64,000 bases of DNA, from the NCBI RefSeq assembly GCF_056712565.1, contig NZ_CM160072.1; one strand, given 5' to 3'. The notes under the pieces are model-generated. The model worked only from the letters and a program-made list of their open reading frames with translations, was not told the DNA's origin and ran no database searches. Below, piece by piece: positions 1,653-25,916 of this stretch (its first letter is position 1; every line of letters starts with the position of its first letter). The translations under genes and the position numbers were made by a program.

Positions 1653-2974
1653 CGCACGATAATATCGATATTCTGGTGGTGGATGATGACATTAGCCACT
1701 GCACTATTTTGCAGGCTTTGCTGCGCGGCTGGGGCTATAACGTCGCGCTGGCGAACAGCGGGCGACAGGCGCTGGAGCAGGTGCGGGAACAGGTTTTTGA
1801 TCTTGTGCTTTGCGATGTGCGAATGGCAGAGATGGATGGTATCGCCACGCTAAAAGAGATCAAAACATTAAACCCCGCGATTCCGGTGCTGATTATGACC
1901 GCGTACTCCAGCATCGAGACGGCGGTAGAGGCGTTGAAAACCGGGGCGCTGGATTATCTCATCAAGCCGCTGGATTTCGATAACCTACAGTCGACGCTGG
2001 AAAAGGCGCTCGCGCATACACACAGTGTTGACGCTGAAACGCCTGCGGTGTCTGCCAGCCAGTTCGGTATGGTCGGTAAAAGCCCGGCGATGCAACACCT
2101 GCTCAGTGAAATCGCCCTCGTCGCGCCATCGGAAGCCACGGTGCTGATCCACGGCGATTCCGGCACCGGTAAAGAGCTGGTCGCCAGGGCGATTCACGCC
2201 AGTAGCGCACGTAGCGAAAAACCGCTGGTAACGCTCAACTGCGCGGCGCTCAACGAATCCTTGCTGGAGTCTGAATTGTTCGGTCACGAAAAAGGGGCGT
2301 TTACCGGGGCCGACAAACGCCGGGAAGGGCGCTTTGTTGAGGCGGACGGCGGCACGTTGTTTCTCGATGAAATTGGCGATATCTCGCCGATGATGCAGGT
2401 GCGTCTGCTACGTGCGATTCAGGAGCGCGAAGTTCAGCGTGTCGGTAGCAACCAGACTATTTCGGTTGATGTCCGGCTGATTGCGGCAACCCATCGCGAT
2501 CTTGCCGCAGAGGTGAATGCCGGGCGTTTTCGCCAGGATCTCTACTATCGGCTGAACGTGGTGGCGATTGAAGTACCATCGCTGCGGCAACGGCGGGAAG
2601 ATATTCCTCTGCTGGCTGGCCATTTTCTTCAGCGCTTTGCCGAACGTAATCGCAAGGCGGTAAAAGGCTTTACGCCCCAGGCGATGGATCTGCTGATTCA
2701 TTACGACTGGCCGGGAAATATTCGTGAACTGGAAAACGCGGTGGAACGGGCGGTGGTGCTGCTGACCGGGGAATATATTTCCGAACGCGAGCTGCCGCTG
2801 GCGATTGCCAGTACGCCGATCCCGCTGGTACAAAGTCAGGATATTCAGCCGCTGGTGGAAGTCGAAAAAGAGGTGATTCTGGCGGCGCTGGAGAAAACGG
2901 GCGGCAACAAAACCGAAGCCGCCCGCCAGTTAGGGATCACGCGCAAAACGCTATTGGCAAAACTGTCGCGTTAG
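1649..2974 (+). CDS. zraR: sigma54-dependent response regulator ZraR (HydG)
   Basis: 441-aa ORF: receiver domain, AAA+ sigma54-activator motifs (GDSGTGKE Walker A, GAFTGA loop), C-terminal HTH; operon with zraS. Confidence 0.92.
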
Positions 2975-4260
2975 TTCTGCTCGCGTTCGATAGCGCGCCA
3001 GCCGATATCTTTCCGGCAGAAGCAGTCGTCCCAATGGATATCGGTCATTAAGGCATAAGCGCGTTTCTGCGCTTCTGCCACGGTATGACCCAGCGCGGTA
3101 ACGCACAGTACGCGCCCGCCGCTGGTCACTACCTGCTCGTCATCCGCTAGTTTCGTGCCCGCGTGGAACACTTTGCCGTCTGCCACTTCTTCCAGCGGCA
3201 GGCCGTGGATCACATCGCCGGTGCGGTAATCGCCCGGATATCCACCCGCAGCCATCACCACGCCGAGAGAAGCGCGTTCATCCCACTCGGACGTTTTCTC
3301 GTCCAGCTTGCCTTCACAGGCCGCCAGGCAGAGCTCAACCAGATCGGACTTCATGCGCAGCATAATCGGCTGGGTTTCCGGATCGCCAAAGCGGCAGTTA
3401 AATTCAATAACCTTCGGATTGCCCTGTTTGTCGATCATCAGGCCCGCGTAGAGAAAACCAGTGTAGGTGTTGCCTTCCGCCGCCATGCCTTTCACGGTTG
3501 GCCAGATGATACGCTCCATCGTGCGCTGATGAACCTCATCGGTCACTACTGGCGCAGGGGAGTAAGCGCCCATCCCGCCGGTGTTCGGCCCGGTATCTTT
3601 ATCGCCTACGCGTTTGTGATCCTGGCTGGTGGCCATCGGCAGCACATGCTCGCCGTCCACCATCACGATAAAGCTCGCTTCTTCGCCGTCGAGGAACTCT
3701 TCGATAACAATGCGATGACCCGCGTCGCCAAACGCGTTGCCCGCCAGCATGTCGCGCACGGCGGCTTCAGCTTCTTCCAGCGTCATCGCCACGATAACGC
3801 CTTTCCCGGCGGCCAGACCGTCCGCTTTAATGACGATTGGCGCGCCTTTCTCACGCAGATACGCCAGCGCAGGTTCTACCTCGGTGAAGTTCTGGTATTC
3901 CGCTGTGGGAATGTTATGGCGGGCCAGAAAGTCTTTGGTGAATGCTTTAGAACCTTCCAGTTGTGCAGCACCTGCGGTTGGGCCGAAGATTTTCAGCCCG
4001 GCGGCGCGGAAGGTATCGACTACGCCTTTCACCAGCGGCGCTTCCGGGCCGACGATGGTTAGATCTACCTTTTCGTTTTGTGCGAAATCCAGCAGCGCCG
4101 GGATATCGGTTACGCCGATAGCGACGTTCTGTAGCGCGGGTTCCAGCGCAGTGCCTGCATTACCCGGAGCAACAAAAACAGTTTCAACCAGCGGCGACTG
4201 AGCCGCTTTCCAGGCCAGCGCGTGCTCGCGCCCGCCGTTACCAATCACTAATACTTTCAT
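2971..4260 (-). CDS. purD: phosphoribosylamine-glycine ligase (GAR synthetase)
   Basis: 429-aa ORF starting MKVLVIGNGGREHALAWK, ATP-grasp family; purHD gene pair as in K-12. Confidence 0.93.
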   Translation of the reverse strand: MKVLVIGNGGREHALAWKAAQSPLVETVFVAPGNAGTALEPALQNVAIGVTDIPALLDFAQNEKVDLTIVGPEAPLVKGVVDTFRAAGLKIFGPTAGAAQLEGSKAFTKDFLARHNIPTAEYQNFTEVEPALAYLREKGAPIVIKADGLAAGKGVIVAMTLEEAEAAVRDMLAGNAFGDAGHRIVIEEFLDGEEASFIVMVDGEHVLPMATSQDHKRVGDKDTGPNTGGMGAYSPAPVVTDEVHQRTMERIIWPTVKGMAAEGNTYTGFLYAGLMIDKQGNPKVIEFNCRFGDPETQPIMLRMKSDLVELCLAACEGKLDEKTSEWDERASLGVVMAAGGYPGDYRTGDVIHGLPLEEVADGKVFHAGTKLADDEQVVTSGGRVLCVTALGHTVAEAQKRAYALMTDIHWDDCFCRKDIGWRAIEREQN

Positions 4261-11564: not shown

Positions 11565-11948
11565 ATGTCAGTTCTGTATATCCAAATTCGTCGTAATCAA
11601 ATTACTGTTCGCGATCTTGAAAGCAAACGTGAAGTGTCAGGAGATGCTGCCTTCAGTAACCAGCGCCTGTTAATCGCCAATTTCTTTGTTGCAGAAAAAG
11701 TTCTGCAAGATCTTGTTCTGCAACTCCACCCACGTTCAACCTGGCATTCTTTTTTGCCAGCAAAACGTATGGATATTGTTGTGAGCGCGCTGGAAATGAA
11801 TGAGGGCGGTTTGTCACAGGTTGAGGAACGCATTCTTCATGAAGTGGTCGCAGGGGCAACGTTAATGAAATATCGCCAGTTCCACATCCATGCGCAATCA
11901 GTGGTACTCAGTGATAGTGCGGTCCTGGCAATGTTTAAGCAGAAATAA
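11565..11948 (+). CDS. yjaA: stress-response protein YjaA
   Basis: 127-aa product from internal Met (MSVLYIQIRRNQ...) of ORF 11529-11948; position between rrnE and yjaB as in K-12. Confidence 0.8.
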   Translation: MSVLYIQIRRNQITVRDLESKREVSGDAAFSNQRLLIANFFVAEKVLQDLVLQLHPRSTWHSFLPAKRMDIVVSALEMNEGGLSQVEERILHEVVAGATLMKYRQFHIHAQSVVLSDSAVLAMFKQK

Positions 11949-12011
11949 TCATGTCACCATTGGTGGGTACGAAACCTAAAGTTCAGCCCACCGGGATGAG
12001 AAAAAAACCGC

Positions 12012-12455
12012 CTACACCCCCACATATGCCAGATTCAGCAATGGATACGGTTTCCCCAAATCGTCCACCTCAGAGCGTCCCGTAACCTTAAAACCCACCT
12101 TCTTATAGAACCCAACCGCCTGCTCATTTTGCTCATTAACATTGGTTGTCAGTTCCGGGGCCATTGAGAGCGCATGCTTCACCAGCATCCGACCCACGCC
12201 GCAGCCGCGCACATCAGGATCGATAAACAGCGCATCCATATGCTGCCCACTTAACAACATAAACCCAACCGGCCGATCCCGCTCATTAACCGCGACCCAC
12301 AACGGTGCTTCCGGCAGAAAGGAATGCACCAGCTCTTCCAGCTCGGCCCGATACTCTGCTGATAAAAAATCGTGAGTGGCATCGACAGAACGACACCAAA
12401 TCGCAACGAGTTCCTCCCCCTCCTCATGCCGTGAGCGTCGAATACTAATAACCAT
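12012..12455 (-). CDS. yjaB: GNAT family N-acetyltransferase YjaB
   Basis: 147-aa ORF with acetyl-CoA binding motif (RGCGVGRMLVKHAL); K-12 synteny. Confidence 0.85.
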   Translation of the reverse strand: MVISIRRSRHEEGEELVAIWCRSVDATHDFLSAEYRAELEELVHSFLPEAPLWVAVNERDRPVGFMLLSGQHMDALFIDPDVRGCGVGRMLVKHALSMAPELTTNVNEQNEQAVGFYKKVGFKVTGRSEVDDLGKPYPLLNLAYVGV

Positions 12456-12564
12456 TTTCTCTCCTTTTCGTCATTCTTATATTCTAACGTAGCCTTTTCC
12501 TTGAAACTTTCTCACCTTCAACATGCAGGCTCGACATTGGTAAATTTTCTGGTTATCTTCAGCT

Positions 12565-12600
12565 ATCTGGATGTCTAAACGTATAAGCGTATGTAGTGAG
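12565..12600 (+). promoter_or_regulatory. putative MetJ operator (tandem met boxes) upstream of metA
   Basis: Tandem 8-bp units GGATGTCT-AAACGTAT-AAGCGTAT resembling the AGACGTCT met-box consensus, just 5' of metA. Confidence 0.4.
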
Positions 12601-12611
12601 GTAATCAGGTT

Positions 12612-13541
12612 ATGCCGATTCGTGTGCCGGACGAGCTACCCGCCGTCAATTTCTTGCGTGAAGAAAACGTCTTTGTGATGACAACTTCTCGCGCGTCTGG
12701 TCAGGAAATTCGTCCGCTAAAGGTGCTTATCCTTAACCTGATGCCGAAGAAGATCGAAACTGAAAATCAGTTTCTGCGCCTGCTTTCAAACTCACCTTTG
12801 CAGGTCGATATTCAGCTTTTGCGCATCGATTCCCGTGAATCGCGCAACACGCCCGCAGAGCATCTGAATAACTTCTACTGTAACTTTGAAGATATTCAGG
12901 AACAAAACTTTGACGGTCTGATAGTTACCGGCGCGCCGCTGGGCCTGGTGGAGTTTAATGATGTCGCTTACTGGCCGCAGATCAAACAGGTGCTGGAGTG
13001 GTCGAAAGATCACGTCACCTCGACGCTGTTTGTCTGCTGGGCTGTACAGGCCGCGCTCAATATCCTCTATGGTATTCCTAAGCAAACCCGCACCGACAAA
13101 CTCTCTGGCGTTTACGAGCATCATATTCTCCATCCTCATGCGCTTCTGACGCGTGGCTTTGATGATTCATTCCTGGCACCGCATTCGCGCTATGCTGACT
13201 TTCCGGCAGCGTTGATTCGTGATTATACCGATCTGGAAATTCTGGCAGAGACGGAAGAAGGGGATGCATATCTGTTTGCCAGCAAAGATAAGCGCATTGC
13301 CTTTGTGACGGGCCATCCCGAATATGATGCGCAAACGCTGGCGCAGGAATATTTCCGCGATGTGGAAGCCGGGCTAGACCCGGATGTACCGTATAACTAT
13401 TTCCCGCACAATGATCCGCAAAATACACCGCGAGCGAGCTGGCGTAGTCACGGTAATTTGCTGTTTACCAACTGGCTCAACTATTACGTCTACCAGATCA
13501 CGCCATATGATCTACGGCACATGAATCCAACGCTGGATTAA
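12612..13541 (+). CDS. metA: homoserine O-succinyltransferase
   Basis: 309-aa ORF starting [23 protein letters not shown]; K-12 synteny. Confidence 0.93.
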
Positions 13542-13585
13542 TCTTCTGTGATAGTCGATCGTTAAGCGATTCAGCACCTTACCTC

Positions 13586-13610
13586 AGGCACCTTCGGGTG
13601 CCTTTTTTAT
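13586..13610 (+). terminator. rho-independent terminator after metA
   Basis: Hairpin AGGCACCTTCGGGTGCCT followed by TTTTTTAT. Confidence 0.75.
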
Positions 13611-13809
13611 TTCCGAAACACACCTCAGCAAGTGAATAAATTTTATTTATATTGTTATCAGTAAGTTAACATGTATTTTTAATTAAAATGGAAATTGTTT
13701 TTGATTTTGCATTTTAAATGAGTAGTCTTAGTTGTGCTGAACGAAAAGCGCACAACGATCCTTCGTTCACAGTGGGGAAGTTTTCGGATCCATGACGAGG
13801 AGCTGCACG

Positions 13810-15411
13810 ATGACTGAACAGGCAACAACAATCGATGAACTGGCTTTTACAAGGCCGTATGGCGAGCAGGAGAAGCAAATTCTTACTGCCGAAGCGGTAG
13901 AATTTCTGACTGAGCTGGTGACGCATTTTACGCCACAACGCAATAAACTTCTGGCAGCGCGTATTCAGCAGCAGCAGGATATCGATAACGGAATGTTGCC
14001 TGATTTTATTTCGGAAACAGCTTCCATTCGTGATGCTGACTGGAAAATTCGCGGGATTCCTTCGGACTTAGAAGATCGTCGCGTAGAGATTACCGGACCT
14101 GTAGAGCGCAAGATGGTGATCAACGCGCTCAACGCCAATGTGAAAGTCTTTATGGCCGATTTCGAAGATTCACTGGCACCAGACTGGAACAAAGTGATCG
14201 ATGGGCAAATTAACCTGCGCGATGCGGTTAACGGCACCATCAGCTATAGCAATGAAGCAGGCAAAATTTATCAGCTCAAGCCCAATCCAGCGGTTTTGAT
14301 TTGTCGGGTACGCGGTCTGCACTTGCCGGAAAAACATGTCACCTGGCGTGGTGAGACAATCCCCGGTAGCCTGTTTGATTTTGCGCTCTATTTCTTCCAC
14401 AACTATCAGGCACTGTTGGCAAAGGGCAGCGGTCCCTATTTCTATCTGCCGAAAACCCAGTCCTGGCAGGAAGCGGCCTGGTGGAGCGAAGTCTTCAGCT
14501 ATGCAGAAGATCGCTTTAATCTGCCGCGCGGCACCATCAAGGCGACGTTGCTGATTGAAACGCTGCCCGCCGTGTTCCAGATGGATGAAATCCTTCACGC
14601 GCTGCGTGACCATATTGTTGGTCTGAACTGCGGTCGTTGGGATTACATCTTCAGTTATATCAAAACATTGAAAAACTATCCCGATCGCGTCCTGCCAGAC
14701 AGACAGGCAGTGACGATGGATAAACCCTTCCTGAATGCTTACTCACGCCTGTTGATTAAAACCTGCCATAAACGCGGTGCTTTTGCGATGGGCGGCATGG
14801 CGGCGTTTATTCCAAGCAAAGATGAAGAGCGCAATAACCAGGTGCTCGACAAAGTAAAAGCGGATAAATCGCTGGAAGCCAATAACGGTCACGATGGCAC
14901 ATGGATCGCTCACCCGGGCCTTGCTGATACGGCAATGGCGGTATTCAACGATATTCTCGGCTCCCGCAAAAACCAGCTTGAGGTGATGCGCGAACAAGAC
15001 GCGCCGATTACTGCCGATCAGCTGCTGGCACCTTGTGATGGTGAACGCACCGAAGAAGGTATGCGCGCCAACATTCGCGTGGCTGTGCAGTACATCGAAG
15101 CGTGGATCTCTGGCAATGGCTGTGTGCCGATTTATGGCCTGATGGAAGATGCGGCGACGGCTGAAATTTCCCGTACCTCAATCTGGCAGTGGATCCATCA
15201 TCAAAAAACGTTGAGCAATGGCAAACCGGTGACTAAAGCCTTGTTCCGCCAGATGCTGGGCGAAGAGATGAAAGTCATTGCCAGCGAACTGGGCGAAGAA
15301 CGTTTCTCCCATGGGCGTTTTGACGATGCCGCACGCTTGATGGAACAGATCACCACTTCCGATGAGTTAATTGATTTCCTGACCCTGCCAGGCTACCGCC
15401 TGTTAGCGTAA
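13810..15411 (+). CDS. aceB: malate synthase A
   Basis: 533-aa product from MTEQATT within ORF 13792-15411; first gene of glyoxylate shunt operon aceBAK. Confidence 0.93.
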
Positions 15412-15440
15412 ACCACCACATAACTATGGAGCATCTGCAC

Positions 15441-16745
15441 ATGAAAACCCGTACACAACAAATTGAAGAATTACAGAAAGAGTGGACTCAACCGCGTTGG
15501 GAAGGCATTACTCGCCCGTACAGCGCGGAAGATGTGGTGAAATTACGCGGTTCAGTCAATCCGGAATGCACCCTGGCGCAACTGGGCGCGGCGAAAATGT
15601 GGCGTCTGCTGCACGGCGAGTCGAAAAAAGGCTACATCAACAGCCTCGGTGCACTGACTGGTGGTCAGGCGCTGCAACAGGCGAAAGCGGGTATTGAAGC
15701 AGTCTATCTGTCGGGATGGCAGGTAGCGGCGGACGCTAACCTGGCGGCCAGCATGTATCCGGATCAGTCGCTCTATCCGGCAAACTCGGTGCCAGCGGTG
15801 GTGGAGCGGATCAACAATACTTTCCGCCGTGCGGATCAGATCCAATGGTCCGCGGGCATTGAGCCGGGCGATCCGCGCTATGTCGATTACTTCCTGCCGA
15901 TCGTCGCCGATGCGGAGGCCGGTTTTGGCGGTGTACTGAATGCCTTTGAACTGATGAAAGCGATGATTGAAGCCGGTGCAGCGGCAGTTCACTTCGAAGA
16001 TCAGCTGGCATCAGTGAAGAAATGTGGTCACATGGGCGGCAAAGTTTTGGTGCCAACTCAGGAAGCTATTCAGAAACTGGTCGCGGCGCGTCTGGCAGCT
16101 GATGTGACGGGCGTTCCAACCCTGCTGGTTGCTCGTACCGATGCCGATGCGGCGGATCTGATTACCTCCGATTGCGACCCACATGACAGCGAATTTATTA
16201 CTGGCGAGCGTACCAGTGAAGGCTTCTTCCGTACTCATGCGGGTATTGAGCAAGCGATCAGCCGTGGCCTGGCGTATGCGCCATATGCTGACCTGGTATG
16301 GTGTGAAACCTCCACGCCGGACCTGGAACTGGCGCGTCGCTTTGCACAAGCCATCCACGCGAAATATCCGGGCAAACTGCTGGCTTATAACTGCTCGCCG
16401 TCGTTCAACTGGCAGAAAAACCTCGACGACAAAACTATTGCCAGCTTCCAGCAGCAGCTGTCGGATATGGGCTACAAGTTCCAGTTCATCACCCTGGCAG
16501 GTATCCACAGCATGTGGTTCAACATGTTTGACCTGGCAAACGCCTATGCCCAGGGCGAGGGTATGAAGCACTATGTTGAGAAAGTGCAGCAGCCGGAATT
16601 TGCCGCCGCGAAAGATGGCTATACCTTCGTATCTCACCAGCAGGAAGTGGGTACAGGTTACTTCGATAAAGTGACGACCATTATTCAGGGCGGCACGTCG
16701 TCGGTTACCGCACTGACTGGCTCCACTGAAGAATCGCAGTTCTAA
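15441..16745 (+). CDS. aceA: isocitrate lyase
   Basis: 434-aa product from [12 protein letters not shown]; contains ICL signature KKCGHMGGK. Confidence 0.94.
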
Positions 16746-16784
16746 CAACCAACGCCCCTTTCCGTAAGGCGAGGGGCGAATTAA

Positions 16785-18518
<1,734 letters not shown>

Positions 18519-18534
18519 ATCAGAGGCGAAAAAG

Positions 18535-19359
18535 TCAGCGTATTCCACCGTACGACAGCGTCACTTCCTTCGCCGCTTTAATCACCATCGCGCCAAACTC
18601 GGTCACGCGGTCATCGGTAATACGTGAAATCGGCCCGGAAATTGAAATTGCGGCAAACGGTTCGCGGTGCTCATCGAAAATACACGCTGCAAGGCAACGC
18701 AGCCCCAGCGCATGTTCCTCATCGTCAAATGAATAACCCCGTTTGCGCGTTTGGGCGAGATCTTCTTTTAAATGCACAGGAGACACCAGCGTCGCGTGGG
18801 TATAGGCATGTAACCCTTTGCGGTGCAGCAGCTTCGTCACCTGTTCTTCGCTCAGTTGGGCCAGAAAGGCTTTACCCGCACCGGAAGCGTGCATCGGCAA
18901 TTTACCGCCGATAGGCGCGGACATACGCATCAGGTGAGTACACTGTACCTGGTCGATAATAATCGCTTCGTGATTGCTTTGATCAAGCACCGCCATATTG
19001 ACCGTTTCGCCAGACTCTTCCATTAGATTGCGCAGGATAGGGTGAACAATCGCTAACAAATTACGGCTCTGGAGAAAGCTGCTACCGACCATAAAGGCGT
19101 GTGCGCCGATTGCCCAGTGACCCAGTTCGCCGACCTGACGGACAAAGCCCTGTTGCTGCATCGTGGTTAGCAGGCGGTGGGTCGTGGAATTGGGTAACCC
19201 GGCTTGCTGTGCCAGTTCCGTGAGTGCCACACTGCCATTGGATTCGGCAATCCACTCCAGTAATTTCAGGCCACGCGTTAAAGACTGAACCTGTCCAGTC
19301 GCTGGTGCGGTGGCAACGGCGGGTTTTCTGCCGCGTTTTGCGGGAATGGGTGCGACCAT
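18535..19359 (-). CDS. iclR: glyoxylate shunt transcriptional repressor IclR
   Basis: 274-aa product from MVAPIPAKRGRKPA within ORF 18535-19419; IclR-type HTH and effector domain. Confidence 0.9.
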   Translation of the reverse strand: MVAPIPAKRGRKPAVATAPATGQVQSLTRGLKLLEWIAESNGSVALTELAQQAGLPNSTTHRLLTTMQQQGFVRQVGELGHWAIGAHAFMVGSSFLQSRNLLAIVHPILRNLMEESGETVNMAVLDQSNHEAIIIDQVQCTHLMRMSAPIGGKLPMHASGAGKAFLAQLSEEQVTKLLHRKGLHAYTHATLVSPVHLKEDLAQTRKRGYSFDDEEHALGLRCLAACIFDEHREPFAAISISGPISRITDDRVTEFGAMVIKAAKEVTLSYGGIR

Positions 19360-19558
19360 GACAGTCTCCTTTTTCTGTATCGTGGAAATCATTTTCATTT
19401 TTATTATCAGCGAATGCAATAGTTGCTGAACAGATCCGATGAGTTAATGTTGAACAAATCTCATGTTGCGTGGTGGTCGCTTTTACCACAGATGCGTTTA
19501 TGCCAGTATGGTTTGTTGAATTTTTATTAAATCTGGGTTAAGCGTGTCGGGAGCAAGT

Positions 19559-23242
<3,684 letters not shown>

Positions 23243-23251
23243 GTGATAACA

Positions 23252-23276
23252 CCGGGGTATTTGCCCCGGTTTTTAA
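23252..23276 (+). terminator. rho-independent terminator after metH
   Basis: Hairpin CCGGGGTATTTGCCCCGG followed by TTTTTAA directly after metH stop. Confidence 0.8.
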
Positions 23277-23295
23277 TGTCATAAATAATGGATTA

Positions 23296-23622
23296 TTGAA
23301 CATGATAAAAATTGATGAAATAGATTTTTTCGCTTTCGAAGGATGTTCAGAGTCCGAAGTTACTGAACTATTAGGAAAAAAACCAACAGGTTATAATGAT
23401 TGGATGATTAATATAAAAACAGGTGTGGAGTGGGTATTTTATGATGGTCGTTATTGGTTAGATTTTCGTAAATCCAAAGAGGGTATAAGGTGTATCTCAT
23501 GCAGTATTCTGTATCACGATAAAAGTAAAGGGCGTATCGATGTCTTATTTAGTGAAGGTATAGCTGACAGAGGTTTAAAAAATACGGGTGGAGTGTTAAT
23601 CCAAAAACGCCCGCAATTATAA
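23296..23622 (+). CDS. hypothetical protein (AT-rich accessory ORF 1, no recognised family)
   Basis: 108-aa ORF in markedly AT-rich DNA; no TM segment or signal peptide; weak RBS so start (23296 or 23302) is uncertain; not recognised by me. Confidence 0.45.
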   Translation: MNMIKIDEIDFFAFEGCSESEVTELLGKKPTGYNDWMINIKTGVEWVFYDGRYWLDFRKSKEGIRCISCSILYHDKSKGRIDVLFSEGIADRGLKNTGGVLIQKRPQL

Positions 23623-23664
23623 TAATTCCTGGTAATATTTGTTTTCGTAAAAAGGATTTACTTT

Positions 23665-24114
23665 ATGCAACGTCAATATAAAAAATACATTCTTCTTTTT
23701 TGGGGTGTCATGGATGTTATCGCGATAGCCACATATCTGTTCTACTCGCTTGGTAATGGTCGTATCCCTTTTTATTCCGATATCGTTCATTCACTTTCTT
23801 TACTTAAGGATATCGGTGTTGAAGGCGGTTTTTACGCTTATGCAGTCGCCACTGTTACGCTACAAATAGTATTATTGCTCTCTTTATTCTTTTCTGCGCA
23901 ATGTTTTTTAAGACAAAAATTATTTAGTTTCTCTTTTTTGGCGATTCAGGAGTTTATGCGTTTTGCTACCGTAAGCTGTTCAATCTCCGTAATACCGTTG
24001 TTACTTAATTATTTTTATTCACAGGATCTGGTCTTAAATATTTCGTTGTTTATCTTCTCAGAGGTCACAAAAGTGACAACGATTATCTGGTGTAAACGAC
24101 AGGGGAAAGTGTGA
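23665..24114 (+). CDS. hypothetical small integral membrane protein (predicted 4 TM helices), AT-rich accessory ORF 2
   Basis: 149-aa ORF with four hydrophobic stretches; plausible SD AAGGA about 8 nt upstream of ATG; AT-rich codon usage. Confidence 0.55.
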   Translation: MQRQYKKYILLFWGVMDVIAIATYLFYSLGNGRIPFYSDIVHSLSLLKDIGVEGGFYAYAVATVTLQIVLLLSLFFSAQCFLRQKLFSFSFLAIQEFMRFATVSCSISVIPLLLNYFYSQDLVLNISLFIFSEVTKVTTIIWCKRQGKV

Positions 24115-24284
24115 CAGAAATAGCAACAGATACAGGTGGATTTTTATATAAATGCCTTTTTAAATGCTTTCTTGTATAAATCTCTTATACTGAAAGTACA
24201 TACAAGAGAAATGCCTGGATAAAAACAACGTGATTAGAAAAATCTTAACAGGAAAATGCATAACAAAAAGGAGAACCTGATTCC

Positions 24285-25916
24285 GTGCTAACTTTGCTTC
24301 ACCTGCTTTCTGCCGTCGCCCTGCTGGTCTGGGGGACTCATATTGTTCGAACAGGCGTAATGCGCGTCTTCGGCGCGCGTCTGCGTACTGTCCTTAGCCG
24401 GAGCGTCGAAAAAAAGCCGCTCGCCTTTTGCGCGGGGATCGGCGTTACCGCACTGGTGCAGAGCAGTAATGCCACCACCATGCTGGTGACCTCGTTCGTC
24501 GCTCAGGATCTGGTTGCTCTCGCGCCTGCGCTGGTGATTGTGCTGGGTGCAGATGTCGGGACGGCGCTGATGGCGCGTATTCTCACCTTCGATTTATCCT
24601 GGCTGTCACCGTTACTTATTTTTATCGGCGTGATTTTTTTCCTCGGACGCAAACAGTCACGCGCCGGGCAACTGGGCCGCGTCGGTATTGGTCTTGGGCT
24701 GATTTTACTGGCGCTGGAGTTGATTGTGCAGGCCGTAACGCCGATCACTCAGGCAAACGGCGTTCAGGTGATCTTTGCCTCGCTGACTGGCGACATTTTG
24801 CTGGATGCGCTGATTGGTGCGATGTTCGCCATTATCAGCTACTCCAGCCTTGCCGCGGTACTGCTGACCGCGACTCTGACCGCCGCAGGCATTATCTCTT
24901 TCCCAGTGGCGCTTTGTCTGGTGATTGGTGCAAACCTCGGTTCCGGCCTGCTGGCGATGCTCAACAACAGTGCCGCCAATGCCGCAGCCCGCCGTGTCGC
25001 GCTGGGTAGCCTGCTGTTTAAGCTGGTGGGTAGCCTGATTATCCTGCCGTTTGTTCATTTGCTGGCAGAGACAATGGGGAAGTTGCCATTGCCAAAAGCG
25101 GAATTGGTGATCTATTTCCACGTCTTCTACAACCTTGTACGCTGCCTGGTCATGTTGCCATTCGTTGACCCGATGGCACGGTTTTGCAAAACGATTATTC
25201 GCGATGAACCGGAACTGGATACCCAGCTACGGCCTAAACATCTGGATGTCAGCGCGCTGGATACGCCCACGCTTGCTCTGGCGAACGCTGCCCGCGAAAC
25301 CCTGCGCATTGGCGACGCCATGGAACAGATGATGGAAGGGCTGAATAAAGTGATGCACGGCGAGCCACGGCAGGAGAAAGAGCTGCGTAAGCTGGCTGAT
25401 GACATCAACGTTCTCTATACCGCCATTAAGCTGTATCTGGCGCGGATGCCAAAAGAGGAACTGGCAGAAGAAGAGTCGCGCCGCTGGGCGGAGATCATCG
25501 AAATGTCGCTCAACCTTGAACAGGCCTCCGATATCGTCGAGCGCATGGGGAGTGAAATTGCCGACAAATCGCTGGCTGCAAGGCGAGCATTTTCGCTTGA
25601 TGGCTTGAAGGAACTGGATGCGCTCTATGAGCAATTGCTCAGTAATTTAAAACTGGCAATGTCGGTTTTCTTCTCTGGCGATGTTACCAGCGCCCGTCGT
25701 TTGCGCCGCAGCAAACATCGTTTTCGCATTCTTAATCGCCGCTATTCCCACGCCCACGTCGATCGCCTGCATCAGCAAAACGTGCAGAGTATTGAAACCA
25801 GTTCGCTACATTTAGGCTTACTGGGAGATATGCAGCGTCTGAACTCGCTGTTTTGTTCGGTGGCTTACAGTGTGCTGGAACAGCCGGATGAAGATGAAGG
25901 ACGGGACGAGTATTAA
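24285..25916 (+). CDS. yjbB: Na+/phosphate cotransporter family (PNaS) protein YjbB
   Basis: 543-aa ORF with GTG start, multiple TM helices and C-terminal PhoU-like region; K-12 synteny. Confidence 0.85.
   Translation: MLTLLHLLSAVALLVWGTHIVRTGVMRVFGARLRTVLSRSVEKKPLAFCAGIGVTALVQSSNATTMLVTSFVAQDLVALAPALVIVLGADVGTALMARILTFDLSWLSPLLIFIGVIFFLGRKQSRAGQLGRVGIGLGLILLALELIVQAVTPITQANGVQVIFASLTGDILLDALIGAMFAIISYSSLAAVLLTATLTAAGIISFPVALCLVIGANLGSGLLAMLNNSAANAAARRVALGSLLFKLVGSLIILPFVHLLAETMGKLPLPKAELVIYFHVFYNLVRCLVMLPFVDPMARFCKTIIRDEPELDTQLRPKHLDVSALDTPTLALANAARETLRIGDAMEQMMEGLNKVMHGEPRQEKELRKLADDINVLYTAIKLYLARMPKEELAEEESRRWAEIIEMSLNLEQASDIVERMGSEIADKSLAARRAFSLDGLKELDALYEQLLSNLKLAMSVFFSGDVTSARRLRRSKHRFRILNRRYSHAHVDRLHQQNVQSIETSSLHLGLLGDMQRLNSLFCSVAYSVLEQPDEDEGRDEY

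Follow-up and report, generated by a model that had tools for sequence, protein, structure and literature searches.

The arpA-less aceK–iclR junction of a phylogroup B2 Escherichia coli strain and its probable ancestral state

Anatomy of the aceK–iclR junction

We analyzed a 64-kb stretch of DNA (termed the window) in which aceK and iclR, the gene for the repressor of aceBAK, face each other across a very short spacer.

16794..18518, + strand: aceK, isocitrate dehydrogenase kinase/phosphatase, 574 aa (open reading frame list, translation, and RefSeq annotation of ATCC 11775, which is identical here)
18519..18534, no strand: aceK-iclR spacer, ATCAGAGGCGAAAAAG, 16 bp (read from the sequence)
18535..19359, − strand: iclR, aceBAK repressor, 274 aa (open reading frame list, translation, and ATCC 11775 RefSeq annotation)

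The aceK stop codon is TAA (18516-18518), and the translated protein ends in …SVRFV*. The iclR stop codon is TGA, read as TCA at 18535-18537, and the annotated start lies at 19359, the mechanically called open reading frame being longer and reaching a TTG at 19419. The open reading frame list and the RefSeq annotation of ATCC 11775 both bear out the initial annotation, which had described the two genes as convergent and 16 bp apart. Positions 11900..25200 of the window match a 13.3-kb stretch of ATCC 11775 (L001) letter for letter, and the genes of this stretch are ordered in RefSeq as yjaA, yjaB, metA, aceB, aceA, aceK, iclR (convergent), and metH. The 16-bp spacer is identical in two arpA-negative strains, MS1266 and Ecol_867.

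A tblastn search with the K-12 ArpA protein yielded no match anywhere in the 64-kb window, which, together with the lack of a site for the ArpA1.r primer, confirmed that arpA does not lie between aceK and iclR. This absence is a fact of gene order and carries no statistical signal. Nor is the close convergence unusual for this gene pair, since the spacer ranges from −47 to 2,273 bp in 76 other Enterobacteriaceae species, 11 of which have a 4-bp overlap. The arpA-less arrangement itself is already known, being ordinary for phylogroup B2 E. coli and textbook material in phylotyping; to this we add the direction of the event (arpA probably gained), the precise breakpoints, and the finding that no terminator is recognizable.

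Further downstream, the spacer between metH and yjbB (23243..24284) measures 1,042 bp with 34% GC, compared to just 219 bp in K-12. It contains two open reading frames, 23296..23622 (108 aa) and 23665..24114 (149 aa, hydrophobic), both hypothetical in ATCC 11775, and it looks like a small foreign insert.

Strain identity and distribution of arpA in E. coli

Over 1.3 kb, the junction region is 100% identical to that of ATCC 11775 (= DSM 30083T). The last 25 kb of the window are exactly identical to ATCC 11775, MS7163, S88, and APEC O1, and the first 25 kb are ∼100% identical to APEC E18055, MS7163, S88, and ATCC 11775, with no perfect match among the listed genomes (bit scores of 46134-46156 vs 46167 for the exact matches to the last 25 kb). 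DSM 30083T belongs to phylotype B2, with S88 as its nearest neighbor (Meier-Kolthoff et al., PMC4334874). On the 64 kb of genome compared, the window clustered with B2, its best matches being ATCC 11775, S88, APEC O1, and MS7163. On the basis of this identity, we assign the window to a B2 strain from the ST95 complex, to which ATCC 11775/DSM 30083T, S88, and APEC O1 belong. The alignment with B2 reference genomes that the initial annotation had suggested thus gave ∼100% identity for ATCC 11775 and S88, and its view that the strain is not K-12-like group A is supported by the ∼100% identity to B2/ST95-type genomes.

We then evaluated the Clermont markers, taking the primers from PMC4322292 and checking primers and decision table against PMC10894499. 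Two features of the window are relevant here.

11565..11948, + strand: yjaA (annotation in the ATCC 11775 segment)
18120..18139, + strand: AceK.f primer site, 2 mismatches

Both yjaA primers match exactly and with the expected spacing, giving the 211-bp Clermont amplicon at 11624..11834, so yjaA is present in the window as initially reported. No ArpA1.r site was found in the window when up to 3 mismatches were allowed, and there was no 400-bp "arpA" product. The chuA gene lies outside the window. In ATCC 11775, the chu locus is located between yhiD and dctR, chuA is annotated, and the chuA primers yield an exact 288-bp amplicon (14432..14719 of segment L003); from the identity or near identity to ATCC 11775 over 13.3 kb plus 50 kb, we infer that the source genome is chuA positive. 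The profile arpA− chuA+ yjaA+, with chuA taken from ATCC 11775, corresponds to B2 whichever the state of TspE4.C2, as both − + + − and − + + + are B2 in the Clermont table (PMC10894499). The reading of arpA−/yjaA+ as B2 if chuA is present is therefore supported by the chuA amplicon of the near-identical ATCC 11775, and in silico Clermont typing gave B2 from arpA− and yjaA+ in the window and chuA+ in ATCC 11775.

We surveyed 5,426 complete E. coli genomes, a junction being counted as contiguous when one place covered ≥80% of the junction query. By megablast, the contiguous aceK-iclR junction was found in 1,320/5,426 genomes and arpA DNA (the K-12-specific segment) in 4,114/5,426, the latter at a single place in each genome or at most at two, and with one exception on a chromosome. 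The two classes complement each other almost exactly (4,114 + 1,312 = 5,426), which means that, at megablast sensitivity, genomes of the junction type do not carry arpA elsewhere; the surplus of ∼8 genomes fits those keeping arpA remnants. These population counts (4,114 vs 1,320 of 5,426) imply that the source genome likewise lacks arpA at another place, a location that the initial annotation had said would count against its reading.

The survey also revealed variation within arpA. About half of the arpA-positive genomes have the full-length gene (2,004/4,114 cover ≥80% of the query), and most of the others (e.g., E24377A and UMNK88) match in two pieces over 75% of the query (H50-H69), as would result from the internal loss of ∼612 bp. 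Their ArpA proteins are shorter, 524 to 546 aa (P0005-P0016), and these split or shorter forms suggest that arpA is polymorphic or decaying. One genome (L084, GCA_910664965.1, 5001..7205) encodes an ArpA of 734 aa that is 88% identical to the K-12 protein; this allele also occupies the site between iclR and aceK, and it is far more divergent than its flanks, which are 95 to 98% identical to the window and to K-12. The ClermonTyping paper mentions horizontal exchange of arpA alleles (PMC6113867), and this allele fits such an exchange.

Breakpoints and direction of the event

In K-12 (L002), aceK and iclR are 2,471 bp apart with arpA in between. RefSeq places arpA at L002 3505..5691, on the iclR strand and overlapping the last 32 bp of aceK, and names it espL4, a type III secretion system effector. 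The K-12 protein matches the ShET2 enterotoxin N-terminal region (Pfam entry PF07906, E = 1e-96) and contains ankyrin repeats, and no model matched it in an NCBIfam scan. Judging from these domains, arpA resembles a type III effector gene of the ShET2/EspL family with ankyrin repeats. A manual alignment of both flanks delimited what the window has in its place.

18506..18527, no strand: 22-bp stretch in place of the K-12 arpA-bearing segment

Starting with the third base of Val571, these 22 bp take in the end of aceK (its final four codons and the stop codon) and the first 9 bp of the spacer. Their K-12 counterpart is L002 3512..6000, 2,489 bp that comprise arpA and the 316-bp arpA-iclR spacer. 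The breakpoints are also apparent from megablast, since in arpA-positive genomes the junction query matches in two parts, the aceK part up to 18508 and the iclR part from 18528 onward. According to the flank alignment, these 22 bp cannot be obtained by taking out part of the K-12 sequence, which excludes a simple deletion in a K-12-like ancestor as their origin. Substitutions specific to arpA-positive genomes begin at 18494-18497 (CAAAGA vs CAGCGG or CAGCGA), about 12 nt upstream of the breakpoint, a thin hint that the incoming segment may have carried a short aceK-like end. We also looked for a rise in divergence between arpA-positive and arpA-negative haplotypes near the junction and retained nothing from it: there was just a small cluster of changes in the last ∼25 nt of aceK, too little for a confident inference of a foreign aceK fragment. 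The ends of the K-12 arpA segment showed no direct or inverted repeats and no target-site duplication beyond short chance-level matches, and the segment thus bears no transposon signature.

To place the junction among relatives, we used a scan for AceK in GTDB species representatives, which gave at least 80 Enterobacteriaceae loci; a cluster listing for the AceK of the window showed E. coli members only, with no added outgroups. Among the 80 loci listed, iclR is convergent downstream of aceK in 76, and none has ArpA at or near aceK. Escherichia is represented there by E. albertii and by the misnamed "Escherichia sp. ESNIH1" (85% identity), E. fergusonii, the cryptic clades, and E. coli itself not being among the listed loci. 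E. albertii (L004, strain NBRC 107761) has the same AceK C terminus as the window (…SVRFV*) and no arpA. Its spacer is orthologous, 15 bp instead of 16 with few substitutions (TAAATCAGTGGCGAAAAGTTA vs TAAATCAGAGGCGAAAAAGTCA; the 15-bp spacer is also given as ATCAGTGGCGAAAAG); its iclR stop is TAA vs TGA in the window, and the flanking genes are 8 to 12% divergent. Within E. coli, the arpA-negative MS1266 and Ecol_867 have flanks 96 to 97% identical to those of the window and a junction that agrees with it base for base. The K-12 arpA segment has 37% G+C vs 53 to 56% for aceK, iclR, and metH. In addition, cryptic clades II to V are PCR negative for arpA in a published table (PMC10894499). We had considered the 476-bp "arpA" band of cryptic clades III to V as a hint of an ancestral arpA and dropped the idea, because the same table explains the band as a chuA/AceK.f mispriming artifact and scores these clades as arpA negative (PMC10894499).

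The 3′ end of aceK and the gap behind it vary widely. Among the Enterobacteriaceae loci listed, AceK is hypervariable in its tail past …RQRFxVR[YF], and aceK and iclR range from overlapping by 47 bp to lying 2.3 kb apart. Short gaps often hold REP-like elements, and longer ones hold unrelated cargo:

aceK-iclR gap of Trabulsiella and an Enterobacter sp.: CdsA-like cytidylyltransferase and acyltransferase
aceK-iclR gap of Superficieibacter electus: TacA-like antitoxin and GNAT
aceK-iclR gap of a Superficieibacter sp. and Pseudocitrobacter: Phd/ParE pairs
aceK-iclR gap of Klebsiella michiganensis and S. enterica subsp. diarizonae: ASCH-domain protein

Cargo genes or REP elements that extend the AceK reading frame were seen in loci L011, L017, L020, L024, L025, L048, L055, and L058. 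Judged by its contents across these species, the gap is a recurrent insertion spot, and arpA is one more of its occupants in E. coli.

These comparisons suggest that the arpA-less junction is the ancestral state rather than a deletion, arpA being a later gain in other lineages. The initial annotation was correct in that arpA is absent, but its wording, "missing," implied a loss, and the E. albertii junction and the low GC content favor an ancestral absence. Since E. fergusonii and the cryptic clades are outside the loci listed, the case for a gain draws on E. albertii as the single close outgroup, on genera further away, on the GC content, and on published PCR results. The fact that these taxa stand outside the direct comparison leaves some room for an arpA that was ancestral to Escherichia and then lost, in which case B2/F strains and E. 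albertii would have an old deletion allele in common that recombination may have spread; the K-12 AceK tail, "RYGE…," also resembles that of several other genera (…RYGELKQAG, …RFGEVKRAG). We nevertheless regard such an old loss as improbable, given that ArpA was not seen at or near aceK in the 80 other species listed, that the arpA segment has 37% GC, that clades II to V are arpA negative by PCR (PMC10894499), and that the arpA-less junction has a sequence of its own which is not derivable from K-12 by deletion.

A recent loss in a strain of an arpA-positive phylogroup appears more improbable still, even though such losses do occur. In strain LH10-b-1 (L088, 2100..2956), behind a K-12-type AceK of 578 aa with the …YGEMLF* tail lie, in this order, 108 nt left over from arpA, an IS1, and the stretch downstream of iclR in its K-12-type form; from this structure, we consider LH10-b-1 a true secondary loss of arpA through an IS1-associated deletion. 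One further genome (H70) retains just an 84-bp arpA remnant. The window shows neither a K-12-type AceK tail nor an arpA or IS remnant at the junction: it has the 574-aa AceK tail and the spacer in common with E. albertii, its stretch at 18506..18527 is not the subset of K-12 sequence expected from a simple deletion, and its flanks are 100% identical to B2 reference genomes. The secondary deletion in an arpA-positive phylogroup that the initial annotation had raised against itself is thus contradicted by the lack of any deletion scar. Least probable of all, to the point of being nearly negligible, is that the arpA−/yjaA+ pattern denotes a cryptic Escherichia clade (I or II) instead of B2. The Clermont table does assign arpA− chuA− yjaA+ TspE4.C2− to clade I or II (PMC10894499), and chuA is outside the window; however, over 50 kb the sequence of the window agrees to ∼100% with the E. 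coli type strain, S88, and APEC O1, and ATCC 11775 has chuA with an exact amplicon. A cryptic clade is expected to be several percent divergent.

We therefore retain, with high confidence in the reading as a whole, that the window carries the native ancestral 3′-to-3′ junction of aceBAK and iclR in a B2 strain of the ST95 complex and that arpA was gained elsewhere. We propose that in the original state aceBAK, the operon of the glyoxylate shunt, and iclR, the gene for its repressor, would meet 3′ to 3′, and that the arpA-negative lineages (phylogroup B2 and F-type strains) would have kept this junction. In the lineage from which the arpA-positive phylogroups, among them that of K-12, descend, about 22 bp would have given way to a foreign segment of ∼2.5 kb with low GC content. 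The replacement would have given AceK a new tail, four residues longer (…SVRYGEMLF instead of …SVRFV), and would have put a GC hairpin just after iclR. Because the negative state would be ancestral and arpA a horizontally acquired gene of an effector family, the "absence" of arpA in B2 should not be taken as gene loss.

Transcript ends, the arpA marker, and comparison with known systems

We then looked for signals that could end the two converging transcripts and found one candidate.

18536..18550, − strand: weak terminator-like motif at the iclR end, whose 5-bp stem lies in the final codons of iclR, with a TTTTT run behind it in the spacer

This motif folds no better than shuffled sequences (z = +0.17). 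A consensus terminator scan returned 5 sites in the region vs 2.4 ± 1.7 in shuffles, which is not significant, and none behind aceK on the + strand. For the spacer and its surroundings, RNA folds of the two strands had z scores of −1.64 to +0.24 against dinucleotide shuffles and were no more stable, Rfam gave nothing relevant there, and no bidirectional intrinsic terminator (a GC-rich hairpin between an A-run and a T-run) was recognized around the spacer. As judged from these scans, transcription in the window strain probably runs on from each of the aceBAK and iclR units into the other, or depends on Rho to end. The tight arrangement had been said to imply overlapping 3′ untranslated regions or terminators: the overlap of untranslated regions is plausible, but a shared terminator is unsupported, with no convincing intrinsic terminator and folds similar to shuffles.

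The aceA-aceK intergenic region of the window (16746..16793) is 48 bp long; it lacks REP elements and contains one GC hairpin (CGCCCCT…GAGGGGCG). Elsewhere, this spacer has 182 bp with REP/BIME copies in K-12, 215 bp in MS1266, 124 bp in Ecol_867, and ∼540 bp with tandem REPs in E. albertii. Older work on K-12 led to the view that it influences the AceA:AceK expression ratio, and the ST95-type allele may therefore differ in aceK expression.

It is conceivable, although we hold it to be unlikely, that the arpA replacement rewired the 3′ ends of both glyoxylate-shunt regulators. Since AceK of 574 aa has the ancestral tail and iclR has no downstream GC hairpin, the aceBAK and iclR transcripts of B2/F strains would then collide or overlap in antisense, and a phylogroup-specific AceK/AceA ratio and iclR expression could follow. 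If so, the missing REP array between aceA and aceK in the B2 lineage would add to the phylogroup-specific control.

The breakpoints also bear on how the Clermont "arpA" PCR works. In K-12, the 400-bp product (L002 3126..3525) lies wholly within the aceK coding sequence (1800..3536), and just its last 21 nt overlap the 3′ end of arpA. The ArpA1.r target, TAGCGT followed by ACGGTATGGGGAGA, spans the breakpoint: the six 3′-terminal bases of the primer (ACGCTA) are on sequence shared with B2, and the other 14 are in the K-12-specific segment. Given the position of this target, the PCR types the breakpoint allele that the insertion made at the 3′ end of aceK, rather than the body of arpA. B2 strains score negative because the reverse primer binds across the edge of the inserted segment. 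For users of the marker, this means that an IS insertion or recombination at the 3′ end of aceK can flip the result with arpA itself unchanged, the product being inside aceK and reading the breakpoint allele. LH10-b-1 would type as arpA positive, in silico or by PCR, with the gene gone, because the primer site survives. The junction described here flags arpA-negative, ST95-type B2 E. coli, a lineage that is rich in extraintestinal pathogens and includes the type strain of the species; beyond strain identification, it carries little weight.

Compared with the K-12 locus, the window has aceB, aceA, aceK, the convergent iclR, and metH in equal order and orientation, with DNA identities of 95.8% for aceK and 96.7% for iclR. 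The two loci differ in AceK, which has 578 aa and ends in …SVRYGEMLF* in K-12 vs 574 aa and …SVRFV* in the window, and in the 8-bp GC hairpin (GGGCAGAG…UUCUGCCC) that K-12 carries directly after the iclR stop, inside the arpA-linked segment, and that the window lacks. With respect to the marker of the 2013 Clermont quadruplex (AceK.f/ArpA1.r, 400 bp), the window represents its negative state, without any difference. As for the ShET2/EspL2/OspD family of type III effectors, K-12 ArpA falls in PF07906 and is just ∼24% identical to the members encoded on Shigella virulence plasmids, whereas the window has no member of this family at the aceK-iclR site.
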